Source of the DNA: Candidatus Latescibacterota bacterium
Lineage (GTDB): Bacteria > Latescibacterota > UBA2968 > UBA8231
Assembly (NCBI GenBank): GCA_965248355.1
Contig: OZ252098.1
Coordinates: 5,184,001-5,248,000 of the forward strand
Length of the DNA stretch: 64,000 nt
Direction of reading: 5' to 3'
Shown here: positions 43,886-52,378 of the stretch, piece after piece
Position numbering within the stretch: the stretch's first letter is position 1
Layout of the letters: the number at the start of each line of letters is the position of its first letter
The notes under the pieces: model-generated
Database searches by the model: none
The model's input: the letters and a program-made list of their open reading frames with translations, nothing else
What the model was told of the DNA's origin: nothing
Program-made: the position numbers and the translations under genes

Positions 43886-44008
43886 CTACCCTGCCCCCGT
43901 GTCCGTCTCCGTCGCGCCCAGCCGCTCCGCGACCCGCGTGAACTGCTCCAGCGCCTCCAGAGCCTCACAGATTGCCAGACAGCCCACAGGGGCGACAGAG
44001 ATGGTCAT
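43886..44008 (-). CDS. 40-aa mini-ORF ending in a copy of the HsdM C-terminal helix
   Basis: MTISVAPVGCLAICEALEALEQFTRVAERLGATETDTGAG*; its ATG overlaps the upstream TGA (ATGA). Confidence 0.35.
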   Translation of the reverse strand: MTISVAPVGCLAICEALEALEQFTRVAERLGATETDTGAG

Positions 44009-44325
44009 TCGCTTCTCCCCTGTTCGCTTATCCCCATATCAGCCCATTCCTTAACGGAGAATTGGTCCGTTCTCGGAGGAGTCCGCAGTAGCCGCCTTCT
44101 TGATATTCCCCTTACGGCTTCTTCTACAGCCTCTACGCTATGCCCGGTATCCGCTGCTATCTTCTTCTTGTGAGGAAAGGGCTTTCCCTCAGCGTCCTGC
44201 TGCTTGAGAAGCTCCAGAACCTTTTCCGTCAAATCCTCTGCTTCCGTCATATCCTGTGCGTCTCCCTCCTTCTCCTCTGCGTCCTGCTGCTTGAAGAGCC
44301 GCAAGAATCTCTCAATCAAACCCAT
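44005..44325 (-). CDS. Small hypothetical protein, possible HTH
   Basis: GGGAGG RBS; AT-richer; internal KQQDAE repeat; KKKIAADTGHSVEAVEEAVRGI is HTH-like. Confidence 0.6.
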   Translation of the reverse strand: MGLIERFLRLFKQQDAEEKEGDAQDMTEAEDLTEKVLELLKQQDAEGKPFPHKKKIAADTGHSVEAVEEAVRGISRRRLLRTPPRTDQFSVKEWADMGISEQGRSE

Positions 44326-44451: not shown

Positions 44452-45957
44452 CTACCCTCGCCCCGGTTCCGCCTCCGCCTCGCCCAGCCGCTCCGCGATC
44501 CGCGTGAACTGCTCCAGCGCCGCCTCGAGGTCGTCGGCGATCTCGGCGGCGATGACGTCGGGGGCCGGCAGCGAGTCGGTGTCGGTCAGGCTCTCGTCCC
44601 TGATCCAGAACAGGTCGAGGCTCAGCTTGTCCCGCTTCTGCAGCTCGTCGTAGTCGTAGCAGCGCCAGCGGCCGTCCGGGTTGTCCTCGCTCCAGGTCTC
44701 GGCGCGCTCGTGCAGGCGGCCGGGCTTGTAGCACTCGACGAAGTCGTCGAAGTCCTCCCGCCGGATCGGCTTCTGCTTCAGCGTGAAGTGCAGGTTGGTG
44801 CGCAGGTCGTAGATCCACAGGCGGTCGGTCCAGGCCTCGGCCCGGCCCTCCTTCTTGTCGAAGAACACCACGTTGGCCTTGACGCCGGGCGAGTACCAGA
44901 TGCCGGTGGGCAGGCGCAGCAGGGTGTGGACGCGGCACTTCTCCAGCAGGTTGCGCCGCACCCTTTCTCCCGCACCGCCCTCGAAGAGCACGTTGTCCGG
45001 CAGCACCACGGCGGCGCGGCCGTCGATCGTCAGCAGACTGTAGATGTGCTGCACGAAGTTGAGTTGCTTGTTGCTGGTGGAGGTCCAGAAATCCTCGCGC
45101 ACGACGACCGAGTCCTCCTTCTCCGTGTCGCCCTCCTCGTTCACGAAGAGCAGGCTCTGCTTCTTACCGAAGGGCGGATTGGCGAGGACCATCGAGTACT
45201 CGCGGCCCCACGGTGCGGAGAGGCTGTCGTGGCCGGTATGCACGACCACTTCCTCGCCGCCGATGCCGTGCAGGTAGAGGTTCATGGCGCACATGCGGCC
45301 GACCTTGGCCGAGATCTCCATGCCCTCCACCAGATCGGTCTGGAGAGCCCGCTTCTCGTCGCCGTCGAGGCCGCTCTCGTACCGGTCCAACACGTACTGG
45401 TAGGCGTTGCACAGGAAGCCGCCGGTGCCCGCCGCCGGATCGCAGATACGGTCCCCGGGCGCCGGCTGCATGACCTCGCACATGGCCTGGATGACCGGGC
45501 GCGGGGTGAAGTACTGGCCGGCGCCGCGCGAGGACTCCTGCGCCGAACGGGAGAGCAGTTCCTCGTAGATCGTGCCCTTCACATCCACCGGCAGCGACAG
45601 CCAGTCCACCTGATCGAGGAGGTTGGCGATTAGCTGCTTCAGGCGCGCCGGGTTGCGGATCTCGCAGCGCGCGCCCCTGAAGATGACCCCGAGCATTCCG
45701 CGCTCGGCCCCCAGCGTCTCCAGGCTCTTGCGGTACTGGTCCTCCAAGGCCGCGCCGTCGAGCGGCAGCAGCGCCTTCCACCCAAGCTCCGGGGGAACGA
45801 GCGTTTCGCGCTCGTAGGGCGGCTCGGTGAGCTGGTCCGCCATCTTGAGGAAGAGCAGCAGGGTGAGCTGCTCGACGTACTCGAAGCAGGAGAGCCCGTC
45901 GTCCCGCAGGACGCCGGCGTAGTTCCAGGCCCGCTTGCCGATCTGGGAGGCGTCCAT
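44452..45957 (-). CDS. hsdM: Type I RM N6-adenine methyltransferase subunit
   Basis: YVEQLTLLLFLKM, GAGQYFTPR, motif I DPAAGTGGFL, motif IV LANPPFG, LPDNVLFEGG, LRLPTG. Confidence 0.96.
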   Translation of the reverse strand: MDASQIGKRAWNYAGVLRDDGLSCFEYVEQLTLLLFLKMADQLTEPPYERETLVPPELGWKALLPLDGAALEDQYRKSLETLGAERGMLGVIFRGARCEIRNPARLKQLIANLLDQVDWLSLPVDVKGTIYEELLSRSAQESSRGAGQYFTPRPVIQAMCEVMQPAPGDRICDPAAGTGGFLCNAYQYVLDRYESGLDGDEKRALQTDLVEGMEISAKVGRMCAMNLYLHGIGGEEVVVHTGHDSLSAPWGREYSMVLANPPFGKKQSLLFVNEEGDTEKEDSVVVREDFWTSTSNKQLNFVQHIYSLLTIDGRAAVVLPDNVLFEGGAGERVRRNLLEKCRVHTLLRLPTGIWYSPGVKANVVFFDKKEGRAEAWTDRLWIYDLRTNLHFTLKQKPIRREDFDDFVECYKPGRLHERAETWSEDNPDGRWRCYDYDELQKRDKLSLDLFWIRDESLTDTDSLPAPDVIAAEIADDLEAALEQFTRIAERLGEAEAEPGRG

Positions 45958-45964
45958 GCAGTGC

Positions 45965-46360
45965 TCAGGCCGTGAGGGCCAGTGGATGCCCGATGAGCTG
46001 CCGGTCCGTGGTGAGGAGCCTGAGATTCTCTTCCTGGGCCTGCACGAGGAGCAGCTCGTCGAAGGGATCTCTATGGGAGAGAGGGGTCTGCAGCTCGCAG
46101 GCGGCGTGACGCTCGGTCAGGGGCAGGAAGGTTATGTCCAGCCCCTCGAGAGCGGCGACCACCTCGCCGGGATCGAAGGGACTCTTGCGCTCCCCGGACG
46201 CCCGCAGAGCCCGGTACTTCAGCCGCATCTCCCAGATCGACACGGCGCTCACGTGCAGTTGCACCCCGTGCTCATCGAAGAACTGTCGCAGCTCATCCGA
46301 GAACCGTCCCTGGGCTTCCATAAGGCCATACAGGTAGAAAGTATCGAGGAGGACACGCAC
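45965..46360 (-). CDS. vapC: PIN-domain (VapC) toxin
   Basis: VLLDT, VSAVSIWE, HRDPFD, LLTTD: acidic PIN residues present. Confidence 0.92.
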   Translation of the reverse strand: MRVLLDTFYLYGLMEAQGRFSDELRQFFDEHGVQLHVSAVSIWEMRLKYRALRASGERKSPFDPGEVVAALEGLDITFLPLTERHAACELQTPLSHRDPFDELLLVQAQEENLRLLTTDRQLIGHPLALTA

Positions 46361-46374
46361 CGGCCGTCTCCCGC

Positions 46375-46656
46375 CTATTCCTCGTCCTCAAGTCCCAGCA
46401 CGCGGCGGCTGAGGGCAGAGTCGTGAAAGGCCGCCATCATCGCCTCCACTTCCTCCGGCGGCGCGTCCTTGATCCCGAGGCGGCGACGGTTGGCGTTCAG
46501 CCGGTCCCAGTCAAAACCGCGGCGCTGCTTCCGTTCACAGCGCACGAGTTGAACGGCCGGCTCGCCCTTCTTGGTTATGACCACCCGTTCGCCGTTCTCG
46601 GCTGCGGTGACCAACTCGGCGAGGCGGTCCTCCGCCTCGTGCAAGGCTAGTTCCAT
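46375..46656 (-). CDS. Phd/YefM-family antitoxin, copy adjacent to vapC
   Basis: LHEAEDRLAELVTAAENGERVVITKKGEPAVQLV; GGAGGA RBS. Confidence 0.9.
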   Translation of the reverse strand: MELALHEAEDRLAELVTAAENGERVVITKKGEPAVQLVRCERKQRRGFDWDRLNANRRRLGIKDAPPEEVEAMMAAFHDSALSRRVLGLEDEE

Positions 46657-46718
46657 GGTCCATCCTCCTGGATGTGTGATGGTGCAGTCGGGCCCTCGGA
46701 ATGCGCATGTCCGGCCGC

Positions 46719-47000
46719 CTATTCCTCGGCCTCAAGTCCCAGCACCCGGCGGCTGAGGGCGGAGTCGTGAAAGGCGGCTATCATCGCCTCGGCTTCTTCC
46801 GGAGGGGCGTCCTTGATCCCGAGTTCGCGACGGATGTCGTTCAGCCGGTCCCAGTCAAGACCACGGCGCTGGATTCGTTCACAGCGCACGAGTTGAACGG
46901 CCGGCTCGCCCTTCTTGGTTATGACCACCCGTTCGCCGTTCTCGGCTGCGGTGACCAACTCGGGGAGGCGGGTCTTCGCCTCGTGCAAGGGTAGTTCCAT
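46719..47000 (-). CDS. Phd/YefM-family antitoxin, second copy
   Basis: LHEAKTRLPELVTAAENGERVVITKKGEPAVQLV; same length (93 aa) and highly similar to the other copy. Confidence 0.9.
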   Translation of the reverse strand: MELPLHEAKTRLPELVTAAENGERVVITKKGEPAVQLVRCERIQRRGLDWDRLNDIRRELGIKDAPPEEAEAMIAAFHDSALSRRVLGLEAEE

Positions 47001-47042
47001 GGTCCATGTTCCTGAATGTGATGTCGGGTGCTGGTACGCTGC

Positions 47043-48737
47043 CTATTCCTCTTCCTCGAGTCCCAGCACTTGGCGGCTGAACGTCGGATCGTCGAATTCC
47101 TTGGGCCACCTCTCTTCGTCTCCCTTGGTTCCGAGACGACGGCGGTCGGTCTCCAGCTTCTCGAAGTCGATGCCGCCACGCCGTTGCGAAGTCCGGGAGC
47201 GACCCCGCCGCCGCGTCTTGCCGCCGGCCCTTGCTGACCGCTTGGCCGCGGCCGCGCTTCTTTCGCGTGCTTGCCGTTCCGAGGCGATGCGCTCCAGGAG
47301 GGTTGAGGCGGGTTCGTCGTTCGGATCCTGAGGCACGAGCTTGCCGCTGAAGGCGTGCTTCAGGATGGCTTGGCGGAGGGACTGGGCTCCATGCAGCTTG
47401 GCTTCGATGTCGGCTTCGAGGCGGTCTATGTTGGAGAACTGGCCTTCCACGGCTTCGACGATGGCAAGCTGTTCGGCAAAGGACGGCAGTGGTAGAGCCA
47501 GTGTGCGAAGGATTCGGTTGTTGATGTTCTTCTGGGCGGTTGCAGGTGCATAGACAGAAATCTGATCTCTCGCACTCTGGACAAAGAGTTCCACGTACTG
47601 CACTGAGACGAGCGATGGGTCAAAGAGGACCCCAACGATGCTGTCAGGAAAGCATGCTGGGTAGGCTAGAATGGCTGTCTCCGCAATGTTAGCTGCAATG
47701 GTTATGCACAACGTCTCTGTCGGCCAGAGGCGACTCTGCTTCAGGCCTTCCTCACTATAAGTCTGAGTATGCTGCCGAAGATACCGGTCGGCACCCCTTA
47801 TGTCTCCTGTCTGGACGAAAGGATAGGGTCCGCCATAGAGGAACTCTGCGTTCCGAGGTCGATGTCGCGACCGTCCACGGTCGAGCTTCCCCAGTTGATC
47901 CAAGGAGCCCCAGCACCACCCTTCCGGCAGCGGCGGGAGATCGGCGGTGTCAGGTGCGACCGGTTCCTTGTATCTGGTTTTCCAATTCTTCGGCGGCGTC
48001 TTCCCCTTCTCCTTGAACTTGCGGATCTGATCTTTCTCCCAGCGCCGGCGGCGCTCGACGAGAATCCGCTTCAGAAACTCCTCGGCGGGCTCGGCCGGTG
48101 GATTCCGCCGCCGCACCTCAGCGGTGAGCGATCCTTCGACCGCGGCCTTCAGCACCGAGGCGCGATAGAGTTTCAGCTGTTCTTGTGTCCGTTCCAGGGC
48201 CGCGACGCCGGCGTCGAGATCGGAGAACAACTCTTCAAGAGTATCTGCGATCCGAGTTTGTTCGCTTGCTGGGGCAAGCGGAAACCTGAAGTGGCGAAAC
48301 GTCTCTGCCCGGACGCGCATGAGAGAACCACCAACCCCGGAAGCATTGCCGGCGGCATAATCACGGACGATGTCCTGGCGTAGAAACCAAGCGAGGTAGC
48401 GTGGTTCGATCTGTGAGAGGGGGAAGAAAGGAATCCATTCGGTGGAGGCGACTTTGGGATAGTCAGAGTGAGCCCCTGTCACCCAGACTCGGTTGATGCG
48501 AGGGTTGATCTTGCATAGCAAGACCGTTCCGGACTCCACAGTTCGCTTGTTCGATCCAATAGTACTTCCCGGCGTGATTTCCGGCATGCCGTGCTCGTGG
48601 CTCGGGACACTGTAGAGTTCGAACATGGCATCAGGCGTCAGAGCAGGATTAACGCCTCGGGCAAGGTCCATCTGGACGGCGCCAAGTGTCGTTTCTGCCC
48701 AGCCCGGTGGGAGTTCTGACGTGTCCCATTCGTTCAC
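47043..48737 (-). CDS. hsdS: Type I RM specificity subunit with C-terminal antitoxin-like tail
   Basis: GTG start after GAAGGAAAGG (ORF open from 48785); LPPGW, PLAPASEQ, SVLKAAVEGSL, LPEGW, PLPSFAEQ, LRQAILKHAFSGKLVPQDPNDEPAS; two AT-richer target recognition domains. Confidence 0.95.
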   Translation of the reverse strand: MNEWDTSELPPGWAETTLGAVQMDLARGVNPALTPDAMFELYSVPSHEHGMPEITPGSTIGSNKRTVESGTVLLCKINPRINRVWVTGAHSDYPKVASTEWIPFFPLSQIEPRYLAWFLRQDIVRDYAAGNASGVGGSLMRVRAETFRHFRFPLAPASEQTRIADTLEELFSDLDAGVAALERTQEQLKLYRASVLKAAVEGSLTAEVRRRNPPAEPAEEFLKRILVERRRRWEKDQIRKFKEKGKTPPKNWKTRYKEPVAPDTADLPPLPEGWCWGSLDQLGKLDRGRSRHRPRNAEFLYGGPYPFVQTGDIRGADRYLRQHTQTYSEEGLKQSRLWPTETLCITIAANIAETAILAYPACFPDSIVGVLFDPSLVSVQYVELFVQSARDQISVYAPATAQKNINNRILRTLALPLPSFAEQLAIVEAVEGQFSNIDRLEADIEAKLHGAQSLRQAILKHAFSGKLVPQDPNDEPASTLLERIASERQARERSAAAAKRSARAGGKTRRRGRSRTSQRRGGIDFEKLETDRRRLGTKGDEERWPKEFDDPTFSRQVLGLEEEE

Positions 48738-48821
48738 GCCGTCAACCTTTCCTTCAATCTCCTCACCAATCAGCTGACAACGCATATCGATCTGTCCGAA
48801 CCATGTGATCGGCGGTCAACT

Positions 48822-49442
48822 TCACGAAGCCGGTGGCAGATCGTCAAACCCGACTACGGAGGATGATATGGAGGCCCGTTCTCTGCCCGGGAGCGCCTGG
48901 CGGCGGCGCCCGCGGCGCGGATAGGCTTCGGCATACAGCGGCGCAGCCCTGATCTGCTTCTCGGTCAGCATCGGGTAGGCCGCCTGGATCTCGGCAACCG
49001 GGTCGCCGTTGGCGAGCATGGCGGCGATGTCGTGGATCGGGATGCGCGTGCCCATGAAGCAGGGCGCGCCTCCAAGCACACGGTCGTCGACCTCGGCCAT
49101 CTGCCTGGCCCGCGCCAGCCTGGCGACGCCGCGACGCACGTCCTCCGCCAGCGCCCGCACATCGAGCGAAAGGGCTTCGTCACGCACGGCCTCCGCTGCC
49201 GGCTCGTCGAGCAGACACCGGATGAGGCGGCGGCGCCCTTCCCGCGTCAGGACAGGCCCCATCTGATAGGCCAGCTTCAGCCCCACGAGGCCGGCGCCGA
49301 GAACGACGCGCGCGCCGTTGCGGGTCTCGACCGCATCCGCCAGCAGACCCGCGTCGATGATGCGGTGCACCTGCTTCAGGGGGACACCGGTGACGCAGGC
49401 CGCCTCGTTCGCGGACCAAGAGTGCTTATATGTTTCCACCAT
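48822..49442 (-). CDS. HTH plus DUF433-domain protein (antitoxin-type)
   Basis: WSANEAACVTGVPLKQVHRIIDAG; VLGGAPCFMGTRIPI...EIQAAYPML. Confidence 0.85.
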   Translation of the reverse strand: MVETYKHSWSANEAACVTGVPLKQVHRIIDAGLLADAVETRNGARVVLGAGLVGLKLAYQMGPVLTREGRRRLIRCLLDEPAAEAVRDEALSLDVRALAEDVRRGVARLARARQMAEVDDRVLGGAPCFMGTRIPIHDIAAMLANGDPVAEIQAAYPMLTEKQIRAAPLYAEAYPRRGRRRQALPGRERASISSSVVGFDDLPPAS

Positions 49443-49522
49443 AGTGGAAGGATTATACCCCGCCGGAAGGCAGCCGGCAAGGTGCCATCACCCGTGGACC
49501 TGCGGTGCGCTTGACCGGGCCC

Positions 49523-52378
49523 TCACGCCGCCAACCTCTCGTTCAGTTCCGCCATCAATGGCTTCAGTTCCTCGCGAAATAGCGCGTGAGCCCGCCCCAG
49601 GCTGCCCTGCTGTCCGAACCATCCAGCCTCGAAGTCTTCCCGCTCGATGGCGAGGCTGGTGGCGATATGCTCGGCCATGCGATCGAGCCATTCCCGCTGT
49701 TCGGCGGTGAAGGCGTTGTCCGCGTCCCGTGCCCGCAGCCAGGCCTGGTAGCGCTCGTGTAACTCCTTCCGATATGGGGCAAGTCTCCCGCTCGGGATCA
49801 GGGCGTGGCGCACGAGGTTGACGAGATCCGCGAGTTGGAATCCGCCTTGCCCCTCGACCTTGTCCGCCTCCACCGCCTCGAAGGCGCGCCACAATTGGAC
49901 GGGGGTGGCGGAGATGGGCGGCCGGACCAAGGCATCCTTCAGATCCCGCAGGTCCTTGAGCGACAGGTTGAGCGGCCGGGTTCCGGCGTAGAGCACCTGG
50001 AGCGCGGTCAGCTCATCCTTGTGTTCCTCGATCCAGGCGCGGAAGTCCTGCACCTTGGCCCGCGCCTTGTCGACGGCGGCGGCGTCGAAGCCGGAGTAGA
50101 GCACGTCGTCGATGGTGTGGCGGTCGATGGTCTGCTCGTTCTGTTGGCGGATCTCCAGGATGCGGCGGCGGAAGGCGGCGTTGAGGAAGGGGGTCGCCGC
50201 TTCCCGGGCGAGCTGCTTGCCGGCCTGCTCGATCTCCTCCTCGGTGGGGTGTTCTGTCCCGTGCTGCTCCTGGGCAGCCTTGAGCTGGGCCTCGGGGTCA
50301 CAGGCGTTGAGCAGATCGCGGGCGAGGTCGGGGAAGGTCTTGCCATCCGCCAGGCCCTTCAGCTCGGTGAGTTGTTGCGGCGTGAACTCCCTCTGCAGGC
50401 GGGCGAGCCGGCCGGCGAGCGTGCTCAGGGCGTCGGGATCGATGCCGCCCCGTGCGATGTAGCTGAGCACCTGCTCCAGGGTTCTCGACGGCTGGCGGTT
50501 CAGGGTCCGGGAATCGGTCTTGTCCTGCTCGCACACTCCCACCGCGTCCACGACGATGAAGCGGTCCTTGCCCTTGGCGCTCGGGGTGACGGCGCGGAGC
50601 TTGTCGGTCGAGATGACGCGGACTCCCCGGCCCTTCATCTGCTCGAAGAAGCCGGCCGACCTCACGTTGCGCATGAAGAACACGCACTCGATGGGCCGCA
50701 CGTCGGTGCCGGTGGAGATCATGTCCACGGTGACGGCGATGCGCGGGAAGAAGCTGTTGCGGAAGTTGGCGAGGATCTCGTCCGGGGTGAGGCTGGCGGT
50801 CTTCACCCATTCCGTCACCTCGGTCTCGGTGCCGTCCTCGTCGGTCACCGTCTTTGTGACCTGGGTGAAGCCGGTACGGTAGGTGATCTTCTGGCAGAAG
50901 TCGTTGCCCTCGCCGAACTCCTCGCGTGCGACGCGGACGATGTCGTCGGCGTGGGAATCGTCCTTGGCGAAGATCAGGGTCTTCGGCACCTCGTCGCGGT
51001 CCGGGAAGGCCTCCGGCAGCACCCCGTCTCGGAACTGCCGCAGCACCGTGCGGATCTGGCTCTCCGAGACCACGTCGCGGTCGAGCTGGTTGGCGGTGTA
51101 GGTGAGATCCTGGTTGAGCAGTTGCAGCCGTTCTCTGCGTGTCAGCCGGTTGCGCATGTCTACGTAGAGGCCGGTCTCATCGGCGGCGATGGTGGCGCCC
51201 TGCTCGGTGACCGCTGTCTGGATACGGTACACGTCGAAGTCCACGTTCACCCCGTCGACCACCGCCTCGTCATGGCCGTACTGCATGACGAGGTTCTGGT
51301 TGAAGAAGGCGATGGTGCGCCCGGTGGGGGTGGCGGTCAGGCCGATGAGGAAGGAATCGAAGTAGAGGAGCACCCGGCTCCAGAGGTCATATATCGAGCG
51401 GTGGCACTCGTCGACGATGATGAAGTCGAAGAACTCCGGCGGCACGGTAGCGTTGTAGGCCACGTCGGGGGGTTCGCCGCGCCAGGGCCCCGCGGACTCG
51501 AAGCCCGAGCCTTCCTCGTTGTCTGAGTCGTAGTCGGGTTCGCCTCGCAGCATCGAGTAGAGCCGCTGGATGGTGGTGATGACCACGTTGGCCGCGGGGT
51601 TGATCGAGTTGGCGGTGAGGCGGTGGACGGTATACAGCTCCGGGAATCTGCGCGGGTCGTCAGGCGGCGTGAAGTTGGCGAACTCGTCCTCGGCCTGCTT
51701 GCCGAGATTGGTGCGGTCCACCAGAAACAGGATGCGCTTGGCGCCGCCGTGCTTGAGCAGGCGATAGACGACGTTGACCGCGGCAAAGGTCTTGCCCGAC
51801 CCGGTGGCCATCTGCCCGGTGGCCATCTGGATGAGGGCCCGCTGATCGGCCTTGGCAAAGGACCGTTCGAGGTTGCGGATGGCGCGGGCCTGGACCGCCC
51901 ACAGGCGGGACTCGTCCAGGGGCGGCAATTCTCTCAGCTGCGCGCGCAAGGACGCGGGCTGCGTCATCCACGCCTGCAGCGTCTGGGGCCTCGGGAAGTT
52001 GAAGACCGGGCGGCTCCTCGGCACCGGGTCGAGCCCGTTCGTGAAGTAGGCTACGGACCCGTTGGCCTCGAACAGGAAGGGCAGGGGGATGCGATACACG
52101 GGGAGAGCTTCCGAAACGCCCGCGGCATACTTCGCCGACTGCGCCTCCACGCCGGTCAGGGTTCCCTCTGGCTTGGCTTCGATGGCGCCGGCGATCGTGC
52201 GGTCCACGTAGAGCAGGTAGTCGGCGGTGCCGAACCCGGGCTTCATCGGGAACTCGCGCACGGCGACGCCGGGGCCCGCGGAGAGGTCGAGCTCCTCCTG
52301 GTCCTGGACCAGCCAGCCCGCCGCCTCGAGGTTCGCGTCGATATCGCGGCGGGCGCGTTGCTCGGGAGTATCGCTCAT
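49523..52378 (-). CDS. hsdR: Type I RM restriction subunit (EcoAI/EcoEI-like)
   Basis: Nuclease motif ADYLL...IEAK, MATGSGKT, LFLVDR, DECHRS, GLTATP, TGTD, QMKGRG. Confidence 0.95.
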   Translation of the reverse strand: MSDTPEQRARRDIDANLEAAGWLVQDQEELDLSAGPGVAVREFPMKPGFGTADYLLYVDRTIAGAIEAKPEGTLTGVEAQSAKYAAGVSEALPVYRIPLPFLFEANGSVAYFTNGLDPVPRSRPVFNFPRPQTLQAWMTQPASLRAQLRELPPLDESRLWAVQARAIRNLERSFAKADQRALIQMATGQMATGSGKTFAAVNVVYRLLKHGGAKRILFLVDRTNLGKQAEDEFANFTPPDDPRRFPELYTVHRLTANSINPAANVVITTIQRLYSMLRGEPDYDSDNEEGSGFESAGPWRGEPPDVAYNATVPPEFFDFIIVDECHRSIYDLWSRVLLYFDSFLIGLTATPTGRTIAFFNQNLVMQYGHDEAVVDGVNVDFDVYRIQTAVTEQGATIAADETGLYVDMRNRLTRRERLQLLNQDLTYTANQLDRDVVSESQIRTVLRQFRDGVLPEAFPDRDEVPKTLIFAKDDSHADDIVRVAREEFGEGNDFCQKITYRTGFTQVTKTVTDEDGTETEVTEWVKTASLTPDEILANFRNSFFPRIAVTVDMISTGTDVRPIECVFFMRNVRSAGFFEQMKGRGVRVISTDKLRAVTPSAKGKDRFIVVDAVGVCEQDKTDSRTLNRQPSRTLEQVLSYIARGGIDPDALSTLAGRLARLQREFTPQQLTELKGLADGKTFPDLARDLLNACDPEAQLKAAQEQHGTEHPTEEEIEQAGKQLAREAATPFLNAAFRRRILEIRQQNEQTIDRHTIDDVLYSGFDAAAVDKARAKVQDFRAWIEEHKDELTALQVLYAGTRPLNLSLKDLRDLKDALVRPPISATPVQLWRAFEAVEADKVEGQGGFQLADLVNLVRHALIPSGRLAPYRKELHERYQAWLRARDADNAFTAEQREWLDRMAEHIATSLAIEREDFEAGWFGQQGSLGRAHALFREELKPLMAELNERLAA
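51800..51829. repeat. 15-bp perfect tandem duplication inside hsdR
   Basis: CCCGGTGGCCATCTG twice, giving QMATG-QMATG-SGKT. Confidence 0.9.

Follow-up and report, generated by a model that had tools for sequence, protein, structure and literature searches.

Toxin genes in type I restriction-modification loci

PrrC combines an ABC-ATPase-like N-terminal domain with an anticodon-nuclease C-terminal domain. In the excerpt of PMC12707154 that deals with PrrC and EcoprrI, the gene of a latent RNA-targeting toxin lies in the locus of a type IC restriction-modification (RM) system, and the RM complex keeps the toxin silent. The locus described here is similar in that a gene for a putative toxin of this kind is found in a type I RM locus. 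The components are different: PrrC belongs to another protein family, and it is the RM complex, not an antitoxin, that masks it. The present system comprises a PIN-domain VapC and a pair of ordinary Phd antitoxins; contact with the RM complex is proposed to run through an antitoxin module on the specificity subunit HsdS.

Toxin-antitoxin (TA) modules within type I RM operons are well documented. In Mycobacterium tuberculosis, the gene order is presumably hsdS-vapBC42-vapBC21-hsdM. An excerpt of PMC7517352 places vapBC21 of this species beside hsdM and hsdS.1, and one of PMC12255303 reports DarTG2 of EPEC at a site between hsdS and hsdR. A coupling of PIN-like toxins to hsdM/hsdS has also been described (PMC5499597). 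No direct interaction of TA proteins with RM proteins had been shown at the time of the latter study (PMC5499597). The present locus resembles these operons in having a TA pair among RM genes, with which it is probably co-transcribed. However, TA and RM components are separate polypeptides in the described cases, whereas here part of an antitoxin is covalently included in HsdS.

Modular type II antitoxins, in which a DNA-binding domain that varies at the N-terminus is combined with a disordered, toxin-specific domain at the C-terminus, provide another comparison, since the same C-terminal module is found behind Phd, XRE-HTH, ParD-RHH, and FitA-RHH domains. In the present case, by contrast, an enzyme subunit of 533 residues, which has a DNA specificity of its own, takes the place of the N-terminal partner. 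Because this partner is not a DNA-binding repressor, the fusion should be unable to autoregulate a TA promoter in the usual way. A literature search of titles and abstracts, which is no proof of absence, found no description of an HsdS-antitoxin fusion. An HsdS carrying the presumed toxin-binding module of a neighboring antitoxin would represent a testable connection of TA with RM systems.

The hsdS gene and its operon

The window analyzed in this study is a 64,000-nucleotide stretch from a Candidatus Latescibacterota bacterium. Its type I RM locus is encoded on the minus strand in the order hsdR, a DUF433 gene, hsdS, phd-1, phd-2, vapC, and hsdM. The hsdR gene (49523..52378) encodes a restriction subunit of 951 aa that matches Pfam ResIII (E 4.3e-33) and EcoEI_R_C (E 1.1e-29); its NCBIfam matches to the type I endonuclease PRK11448 (E 8.4e-97) and to the EcoAI/FtnUII family (E 7.8e-48) are both under the curated cut-offs. 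The methyltransferase subunit HsdM (44452..45957; 501 aa) matches N6_Mtase (E 4.3e-60) and HsdM_N (E 1.5e-5). Between hsdR and hsdS lies a gene for a DUF433-domain protein of 206 aa (48822..49442; Pfam DUF433, E 3.6e-17). In a DUF433-PIN_10 pair, DUF433 has been described as the antitoxin (PMC5499597); no PIN partner adjoins the DUF433 gene in this operon. Just upstream of it, a sigma-70-like promoter match on the same strand (TTGCCG-17-TATAAT; 49452..49480), which is a match to the consensus only, is the single promoter-like site in 45800..49600 (mean of 0.4 in shuffled sequences).

The hsdS open reading frame (48785..47043) encodes 580 aa and matches Pfam Methylase_S (E 4.8e-16). Its body, residues 1-501 (47283..48785), consists of TRD1, a central conserved region, TRD2, and a distal conserved region. 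Methylase_S was detected in two stretches, and PADLOC assigned Specificity_I (E 8.6e-91). The AF2 model (mean pLDDT 83.1) contains two globular domains and long helices at residues 173-217, 234-259, and 436-478. Pfam, PADLOC, and AF2 thus describe two target-recognition domains with conserved helical regions between them, as in type I RM specificity subunits, and hsdS, hsdM, and hsdR are all encoded on one strand. After the usual HsdS end (..LVPQDPNDEPASTLLERIA), the protein continues with a basic linker of 32 residues (502-533, SERQARE..SRTS; 47187..47282), which is also present in tail-less relatives, and then with 47 extra residues up to the stop codon at 47045..47043. These residues, 534-580 (QRRGGIDF...LGLEEEE, encoded by 47186..47046; 47043..47186 with the stop codon), are homologous to antitoxin C-termini in BLASTP and MAFFT alignments. 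A sequence-only reading of this DNA had proposed that HsdS is fused in frame to the C-terminal half of a Phd antitoxin, and the open reading frame and the alignments confirm it. In the window sequence, no ATG, GTG, or TTG is found in frame at the start of the tail; therefore, the tail can be produced only as part of HsdS. The in-frame fusion is genuine. It is no product of faulty assembly, because the same junction is found in 11 other HsdS sequences that come from separate records with different flanks and TRDs. These sequences already contradict the idea that the true hsdS stop lies before the tail and was lost through an assembly error or a frameshift, which is hardly credible, and they show that the fusion is not confined to this assembly, a point that the sequence-only reading had wanted checked.

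Two antitoxin genes follow hsdS. A 42-nt leader (47001..47042), one frame of which reads ..HHIQEHGPWN, precedes phd-1 (46719..47000), which encodes a full-length Phd/YefM-type antitoxin of 93 aa (Pfam PhdYeFM_antitox, E 3.4e-9; NCBIfam phd_fam, E 2.2e-8). Its tandem copy phd-2 (46375..46656; 93 aa) matches the same Pfam model at E 8.4e-7 and 29.1 bits, just below the 29.8-bit cut-off. The two proteins are 87% identical, as expected from a duplication. The tail aligns with the C-termini of both (39% identity to Phd-1 and 41% to Phd-2 by MAFFT) and is far more diverged from them than they are from each other. A 43-nt direct repeat (family D2) is found at the stop codons of phd-2 (46370-46412), phd-1 (46714-46756), and hsdS (47038-47080) with 86-93% identity. 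The protein alignment, the divergence of the tail, and the DNA homology around the three stop codons had all been noticed earlier from the sequence and stand as described.

The vapC gene (45965..46360; 131 aa, GTG start) begins 14 nt past the phd-2 stop, so that the antitoxin gene is directly upstream at close spacing in the layout of type II TA systems, and hsdM starts 7 nt past the vapC stop. Thus, a type I RM locus harbors a toxin gene, as with PrrC-type guardians, and here it is tightly packed between hsdS and hsdM. VapC matches Pfam PIN (E 4.9e-9) with 37.3 bits against a cut-off of 23.6 bits. Residues E44, D98, D101, and D119 are invariant among 82 homologs and D6 nearly so. The AF2 model (pLDDT 95.9) is a confident PIN fold, and the best Foldseek matches in the PDB are the VapC proteins of Shigella, Salmonella, the F plasmid, and Rickettsia (TM 0.55-0.65; E 2e-5 to 4e-4). 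Searched by sequence, the PDB gave no match to the VapC profile at E<=0.01 and only chance-level matches to Phd-2 (best E 0.21). With a predicted PIN fold and conserved acidic active-site residues, VapC is, judged by sequence and model, an intact PIN toxin. It shows no homology to PrrC or RloC; Pfam PIN was its only domain match, and PADLOC gave none.

The tail as a portable antitoxin module

In a single pairwise BLASTP comparison, the last 65 residues of HsdS matched Phd-2 with 25/56 identities (E 2e-10). The Pfam and NCBIfam Phd models span residues 3-38/74 of Phd-1, and the tail aligns only to residues 44-93. Since Pfam also finds no Phd match in HsdS, the tail, which does not include the Phd/YefM N-terminal fold, is an antitoxin fragment and not a member of the family. 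Free-standing antitoxins from two metagenome-assembled genomes are closer to it: the tail is identical at 33 of 46 positions (72%) to the C-terminal half of an antitoxin from a Boseongicola genome (L002) and has 61% identity to that of a gammaproteobacterial one (L003). Both are full antitoxins, and the gene directly downstream of each encodes a VapC that shares 64-65% identity with that of the window (64% for L002). These Phd-VapC pairs belong to the same subfamily as the tail and VapC. They form two-gene modules of the ordinary kind, and RM genes are absent from their vicinity; the L003 pair is situated among cas genes. In a plasmid collection, all VapC relatives were below 40% identity (366 records), and annotated VapC stood beside Phd/YefM. 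A candidate from a Bdellovibrionales genome (L004; 43% over 28 residues) was rejected as spurious, as the match lies in no antitoxin-like open reading frame, and the top scores of an ESM Atlas search with residues 520-580, 0.76 and 0.75, fell under the threshold for a lead.

A profile search with the tail against 1.84 billion representatives retrieved 70 proteins at E<=1e-3, 67 of them no longer than 146 aa. The module occurs behind a Pfam-confirmed Phd domain (P0009), an HTH_3/XRE-HTH domain (P0012), a ParD RHH domain (P0031), and FitA-like RHH domains (P0044, P0047); in these four other architectures its start coincides with the GGIDF boundary seen in HsdS. Of the 47 positions of the window tail, 34 carry the family-majority residue. 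At least 40 of 51 free antitoxins concur at 17 positions, and the tail agrees with them at 16 of these. On these alignments, the tail is a copy, close to consensus, of a portable antitoxin C-module; by the same comparisons it is not a decayed copy but a member of a separate 'short' subtype. In two further proteins (P0020 and P0029), N-terminal pieces of HsdR are joined to antitoxin C-modules.

All 12 full-length tails (the window, P0001-P0008, P0206, P0213, and L001) are open to the same stop. Tail-bearing HsdS proteins combine 4 TRD1 with 6 TRD2 clusters in 11 ways, the division into three tail sub-types does not follow the TRD2 types, and the fusion is kept across three backbone sub-lineages. 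This RM family thus carries the fusion in its constant framework, retained through many TRD swaps. The tail-bearing sequences are all close relatives (tail identity of at least 74.5%); therefore, the persistence of the open frame is only moderate evidence. Six of the 120 closest HsdS proteins are tail-less and end in ..S[QPK]H[QE]E..PW[NS]. A stop codon before the tail in related genomes, which the sequence-only reading had counted against a role for the fusion, is accordingly found in close relatives, while the 11 other HsdS keep the tail open.

The C-terminus of the tail-less proteins (..SRTSQHQEHRPWN) resembles the phd-1 leader read in another frame. Because the closest tail-less HsdS end in a peptide matching this leader, the comparison suggests that the fusion may have arisen by an in-frame deletion that took out the hsdS stop and the DNA-binding half of an antitoxin. 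The ancestral operon would have been hsdS, phd, (phd), vapC, hsdM, and the start of phd would have overlapped the stop of hsdS. Deletion of this stop and of the DNA-binding half of the first phd would have joined ..SRTSQ to RRGGIDF.., and the product would then have entered the constant framework of the RM family and been retained while target-recognition domains were exchanged.

Across 11 tail-bearing HsdS, pairs are on average 86% identical in the tail, compared with 78% in the distal conserved region and 68% in the linker. The linker is the least conserved segment of HsdS and has two in-frame indels, whereas the tail has none. Tail-variable columns are weakly enriched in family-variable columns (Mann-Whitney p = 0.069). 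Changes at family-conserved positions include W27R and L41P in P0007 and P0008; the tail of L001 has R17P, and the fragment P0014 has lost the last 9 tail residues. L001 is the closest genome, with 91%, 93%, and 84% identity to HsdR, HsdM, and the DUF433 protein of the window, respectively. The two tails differ by 4 non-synonymous and 0 synonymous changes in 47 codons. The probability of 4/4 non-synonymous changes is approximately 0.013 under an hsdM-like omega of 0.14 and approximately 0.37 under neutrality; therefore, this pair gives no sign of protein-level purifying selection on the tail. The phd copies show an omega of 0.22-0.35 against L001. Neighboring genes have a pS of 0.17-0.40, and given that of hsdM (0.217), the probability of 0 synonymous differences in the tail is about 5e-4 for this one genome pair. 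The longest exact DNA match to L001 in the RM locus (90 nt, 47127..47038) also lies in the tail and extends slightly beyond the stop; the flanking genes contain exact runs of 92-107 nt.

In the AF2 model of HsdS, whose body is predicted with confidence, no secondary structure is assigned after residue 520, and pLDDT is below 50 at residues 529-540 and 546-580, which may be partly due to the few aligned rows there. The tail is thus predicted to be disordered and to extend as a free coil from the distal end of the HsdS coiled coil. The predicted disorder is consistent with the statement, in an excerpt of PMC4803016, that toxin-binding domains of antitoxins are unstructured until bound.

Possible roles of the HsdS-borne module

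We consider it best, with a probability of roughly one half, to read the deletion-born tail as an HsdS-borne putative auxiliary antitoxin for VapC. The specificity subunit of a type I RM system would then carry the complete toxin-neutralizing module of a Phd-type VapB antitoxin as a disordered peptide hanging off the end of its coiled coil. The tail would still bind VapC, as an auxiliary antitoxin unable to bind DNA, and part of the VapC pool would be held on HsdS or on M2S1/R2M2S1 complexes. Neutralization of the toxin would depend in part on a continued supply of HsdS, which would favor retention of the RM operon and buffer VapC. The profile matches, the shared GGIDF boundary, and the antitoxin-VapC pairs of L002 and L003 argue for a toxin-specific module. 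The two intact Phd copies, which could neutralize VapC alone and would make the tail redundant, count against an auxiliary role; so do the L001 locus, which keeps the tail though tblastn found no vapC within 20 kb (E<=1e-3), the purely non-synonymous tail changes, the substitutions W27R, L41P, and R17P, and the loss of the end in P0014.

Much of this evidence is also what would be expected if the same in-frame deletion had left a neutral scar, a harmless disordered C-terminal appendix with no present role in a clade too young for decay. The sequence-only reading had offered this as its alternative, and we regard it as possible and nearly as likely as an auxiliary antitoxin. It gains from the intact tail of L001 with vapC absent from the locus, from the radical changes at conserved W27 and L41, from the redundancy of the tail beside two full Phd copies, from the tail-less sisters that function with the same linker, and from P0020 and P0029, which look like further deletion chimeras from similar loci. 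However, a scar would not readily explain why the tail is better conserved than the linker and free of indels, why all but one of the most conserved family positions are retained, why the junction coincides with a natural module boundary, why the longest exact match to L001 in the RM locus lies here, or how the fusion survived so many TRD combinations and backbone sub-lineages. The synonymous identity of the tails points in another direction, namely that DNA is conserved and not peptide. The 3' tail sequence would then serve the downstream phd-phd-vapC-hsdM genes as a promoter or operator, or act as a recombination anchor for hsdS allele swapping, and the open frame would be a by-product. The exact run ending just past the stop agrees with this, as does the requirement that TRD2 exchange must cross over upstream of the tail. 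We nevertheless find it very unlikely: the tail region contains no promoter-like or terminator-like site, the conserved 90 nt have neither an RNA structure signal (fold z = +0.37) nor an Rfam match, exact runs of similar length occur in the flanking genes, and the argument rests on one genome pair.

The sequence-only reading had gone further and proposed that HsdS tethers VapC and releases it when the complex fails. Its premises held, as the fusion is real, in frame, and antitoxin-derived, and stands beside phd and an apparently intact vapC in a type I RM operon. It is doubtful, though, that the HsdS module holds VapC on the RM complex so that the toxin would be freed once the complex is lost, degraded, or inhibited, or once the hsdS allele is lost. 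A guard analogous to PrrC, with VapC parked on the complex through the HsdS tail and freed as an abortive-infection nuclease upon anti-restriction inhibition or degradation, is improbable. RM guardians are established, since an excerpt of PMC12707154 describes PrrC with EcoprrI and PARIS as such; the position of vapC in the operon fits, and the tail would be a plausible physical tether. Against this, the two free and presumably labile Phd antitoxins would still hold VapC, a pool bound to HsdS would buffer toxin release and not trigger it, VapC is unrelated to PrrC, and L001 has the tail without vapC. DNA mimics such as Ocr and ArdA target the DNA-binding groove, and in the AF2 model coupling of a predicted free-coil tail to this groove is not evident. 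We consider the auxiliary-antitoxin role more likely than a release of VapC from the complex triggered by phage.

If the auxiliary-antitoxin reading is correct and the tail binds VapC, a gene-fusing deletion alone can make a defense enzyme 'addictive' or guarded. If HsdS holds VapC and frees it when the complex or the allele fails, the locus would be a guard or addiction device built from TA parts, and a TA system would for the first time be seen in direct physical connection with an RM enzyme. If the tail does not bind, it would be a clean case of deletion scars persisting in the constant framework of a fast-shuffling RM family, and a caution on inferring function from domain fusions in defense islands. 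The close tail-less relatives offer a natural comparison between full-length and tail-less HsdS. Some HsdS and VapC sequences come from contigs of equal length, a hint, too weak to count as evidence, that each pair shares a contig: the tail-bearing P0004 and the VapC P0107 (both 11,896 bp), the tail-less P0217 and the VapC P0085 (both 4,940 bp), and the tail-less P0205 and the VapC P0093 (both 4,286 bp).

An antitoxin module at the end of HsdS

Seven closely spaced genes on the minus strand likely form one operon: hsdR (52378..49523; ResIII and EcoEI_R_C domains, EcoAI-family by NCBIfam, below the cut-off), a DUF433 gene (49442..48822; 206 aa, the first 110 or so matching no known family), hsdS (48785..47043; 580 aa), phd-1 (47000..46719), phd-2 (46656..46375), the PIN-domain gene vapC (46360..45965), and hsdM (45957..44452). 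The gap between phd-2 and vapC is 14 nt, that between vapC and hsdM is 7 nt, and the sole promoter-like match of 45800..49600 sits immediately 5' of the DUF433 gene. Within the 64-kb window, none of the seven has a second copy.

Beyond the point where HsdS usually ends come a basic linker of 32 residues (502-533) and then, in the same frame, a tail of 47 more (534-580; 47043..47186, minus strand, stop included). The sequence-only reading related this tail to the adjacent Phd C-termini, and the alignments agree: the C-terminal half of both Phds is matched at 39-41% identity (BLASTP E 2e-10 against Phd-2). The homology it noted around the three stop codons is a 43-nt direct repeat of 86-93% identity, and the tail is indeed more diverged than the Phds are from each other (87% identical). 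No in-frame start codon before the tail was found in the window sequence; therefore, the tail peptide could be made only as part of HsdS.

Of 683 candidates in a search with residues 500-580, eight reached E<=0.01, and every one of them ends in the tail. When the distal conserved region, which precedes the linker, was used instead, 10 of the best 120 of 2,856 matches fitted the tail HMM: the same eight, P0206, and P0213. A one-genome-per-species scan added L001, a MAG of Candidatus Latescibacterota that shares synteny with the window (identities of 91% for hsdR, 84% for DUF433, and 93% for hsdM). The fusion, which might have been unique to this assembly, thus recurs in 11 further sequences; the same tail in other HsdS proteins and in L001 rules out an artefact and shows that the fusion is real and conserved. 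The 12 tail-bearing sequences comprise 4 clusters of the first target-recognition domain (TRD1) and 6 of the second (TRD2) in 11 combinations, and the three tail sub-types (..QVLGL.., ..KVLG[LV].., and ..RVPGL..) cut across TRD2 types. The tail is therefore part of the RM family's constant framework and older than much of the TRD shuffling.

The tail as a predicted VapC-type module and its probable origin

Against 1.84 billion representatives, the tail profile gave 70 matches at E<=1e-3, 67 of them no longer than 146 aa. The same C-module stands behind at least four Pfam-confirmed DNA-binding domains, namely Phd (P0009), HTH_3 (P0012), ParD-type RHH (P0031), and FitA-like RHH (P0044 and P0047), and in all of these it starts at the ..GGIDF.. 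boundary seen in HsdS. This matches the known build of type II antitoxins, described in PMC4803016 as modular, with a toxin-binding domain that is disordered until bound. In L002 (a Boseongicola MAG) and L003 (a gammaproteobacterial MAG), the gene for a complete antitoxin immediately precedes that for a VapC 64-65% identical to the one of the window, with no RM genes nearby. With the L002 antitoxin the tail shares 72% identity, far more than with Phd-1 and Phd-2, whose "long" subtype carries an insertion of four residues. Of its 47 residues, 34 are the majority choice of the family, and of the 17 positions on which 40 or more of the 51 free antitoxins concur, it matches 16. By these comparisons, the fusion places on HsdS a predicted VapC-type toxin-binding module that is complete and well preserved.

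Besides the RM genes, this operon includes genes for two Phd antitoxins and for an intact VapC. The latter looks functional: its acidic residues are conserved in 82 homologues, its predicted fold is confident (pLDDT 95.9), and its best PDB fold matches are VapC toxins. AF2 predicts HsdS with a mean pLDDT of 83.1, confidently for the body and helix 493-520; past residue 520 no secondary structure is assigned, and pLDDT falls below 50 at 529-540 and 546-580. This fits an exposed, disordered antitoxin module, as weak evidence because few alignment rows cover that part.

Six of the best 120 matches (P0199, P0200, P0201, P0205, P0210, and P0217) share the linker, lack the tail, and end in ..SRTSQHQEHRPWN or similar. 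In another frame, the 42-nt leader before phd-1 reads ..HHIQEHGPWN.., and CC-ATG-GAA-CTA-G gives P-W-N-stop in one frame and the start M-E-L in another. From the protein ends alone, we infer that the hsdS stop overlaps a phd start in the tail-less relatives. The fusion probably arose by an in-frame deletion, which would have joined HsdS ..SRTSQ to RRGG.. of the first phd. Separately, in two short predicted proteins an N-terminal piece of HsdR is followed by an antitoxin C-module; P0020 resembles window HsdR residues ~66-118 and P0029 the first ~23. Either large deletions in decaying RM-TA loci or chimeric assemblies could account for them, and such events seem common at these loci.

Constraint on the tail and its possible role

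Our favoured reading, at a probability of about 0.5, is that the tail can still bind VapC and serves as an auxiliary antitoxin carried by HsdS. Mean pairwise identity across 11 tail-bearing HsdS (P0001, a near-duplicate of the window's, is excluded) falls from 86% for the tail to 78% for the distal conserved region and 68% for the linker; in-frame indels number two in the linker and none in the tail. The longest exact run shared with L001 within the RM locus, 90 nt (window 47127..47038; L001:10051-10140), runs from tail codon 21 through codon 47 and the stop to 5 nt past it. These observations argue for constraint. Nearly as likely is a neutral scar, that is, a tail without a present role. The window and L001 tails differ by four non-synonymous and no synonymous changes, an outcome unlikely under the hsdM omega of 0.14 (probability about 0.013, by our own arithmetic) and unremarkable under neutrality (about 0.37). 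The substitutions W27R and L41P in P0007 and P0008 and R17P in L001, and the loss of the last nine tail residues in the fragment P0014, also count against constraint, as does the non-significant lean of tail-variable columns toward family-variable ones (p = 0.069). Neighbouring hsdS segments show pS of 0.31-0.36; given the hsdM pS of 0.217, zero synonymous change in the tail has a probability of about 5e-4, pointing to recent exchange of the segment or to DNA constraint. No promoter, RNA fold, or Rfam family accounting for the conservation was found by scan.

The L001 locus has no vapC, and its second phd abuts hsdM. Relative to the window, it carries a 1.36-kb insertion (L001:10480-11850) between the phd genes, with ORFs of 105 aa and 329 aa; the longer one has no Pfam match and resembles the PADLOC candidate defence protein PDC-M14B over its N-terminal 130 residues only (E 2.7e-10). 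The tail and both phd genes are intact (phd omega 0.22-0.35); therefore, either vapC was lost recently or the antitoxin parts have a role beyond neutralising this VapC.

The sequence-only reading proposed a PrrC-like guard, with VapC held via the HsdS tail. Guardians such as PrrC are established (PMC12707154), and toxin-antitoxin modules within type I RM loci are known as well: DarTG2 (PMC12255303), PIN-like toxins coupled to hsdM/hsdS (PMC5499597), and vapBC21 beside hsdM in M. tuberculosis (PMC7517352). Such a guard is possible though improbable here, and some features speak against it. No covalent antitoxin-HsdS fusion was found among the titles and abstracts listed by literature searches, which is not proof of absence.

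Other features of the locus

In the N-terminal DNA-binding half, the two phd copies (46719-47000 and 46375-46656) are separated by one synonymous and seven non-synonymous changes (omega about 2.4), in the C-half by 8.5 of each (omega 0.27). On these small numbers, partial gene conversion may have been followed by divergence in specificity between the DNA-binding halves. The phd-vapC pair of L003 (L003:1-14169) lies in a defence island, with Cmr2/Cas10 and Cmr1 genes and an AAA-ATPase/PD-(D/E)XK protein on one side and a Cas_GSU0053 gene on the other.

The DUF433 gene lies between hsdR and hsdS, is conserved in L001 (84%), and has no PIN-like partner beside it. DUF433 is described as the antitoxin of a DUF433-PIN_10 pair (PMC5499597); here the protein might rather be an orphan antitoxin or an operon regulator. 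The promoter-like site is just upstream. G+C is 0.54-0.58 at 47500-47899 and 48300-48699, the two hsdS TRDs, versus 0.65-0.69 around them, which fits TRD import by recombination. About 480 nt downstream of hsdM, tblastn detects a 62% echo of the protein's final 29 residues (43889-43972, minus strand; E 5.6e-4). In between lies a 106-aa ORF (44325..44005) that belongs to no known family and is 84% conserved in L001; the echo may reflect a short duplication on either side of it.
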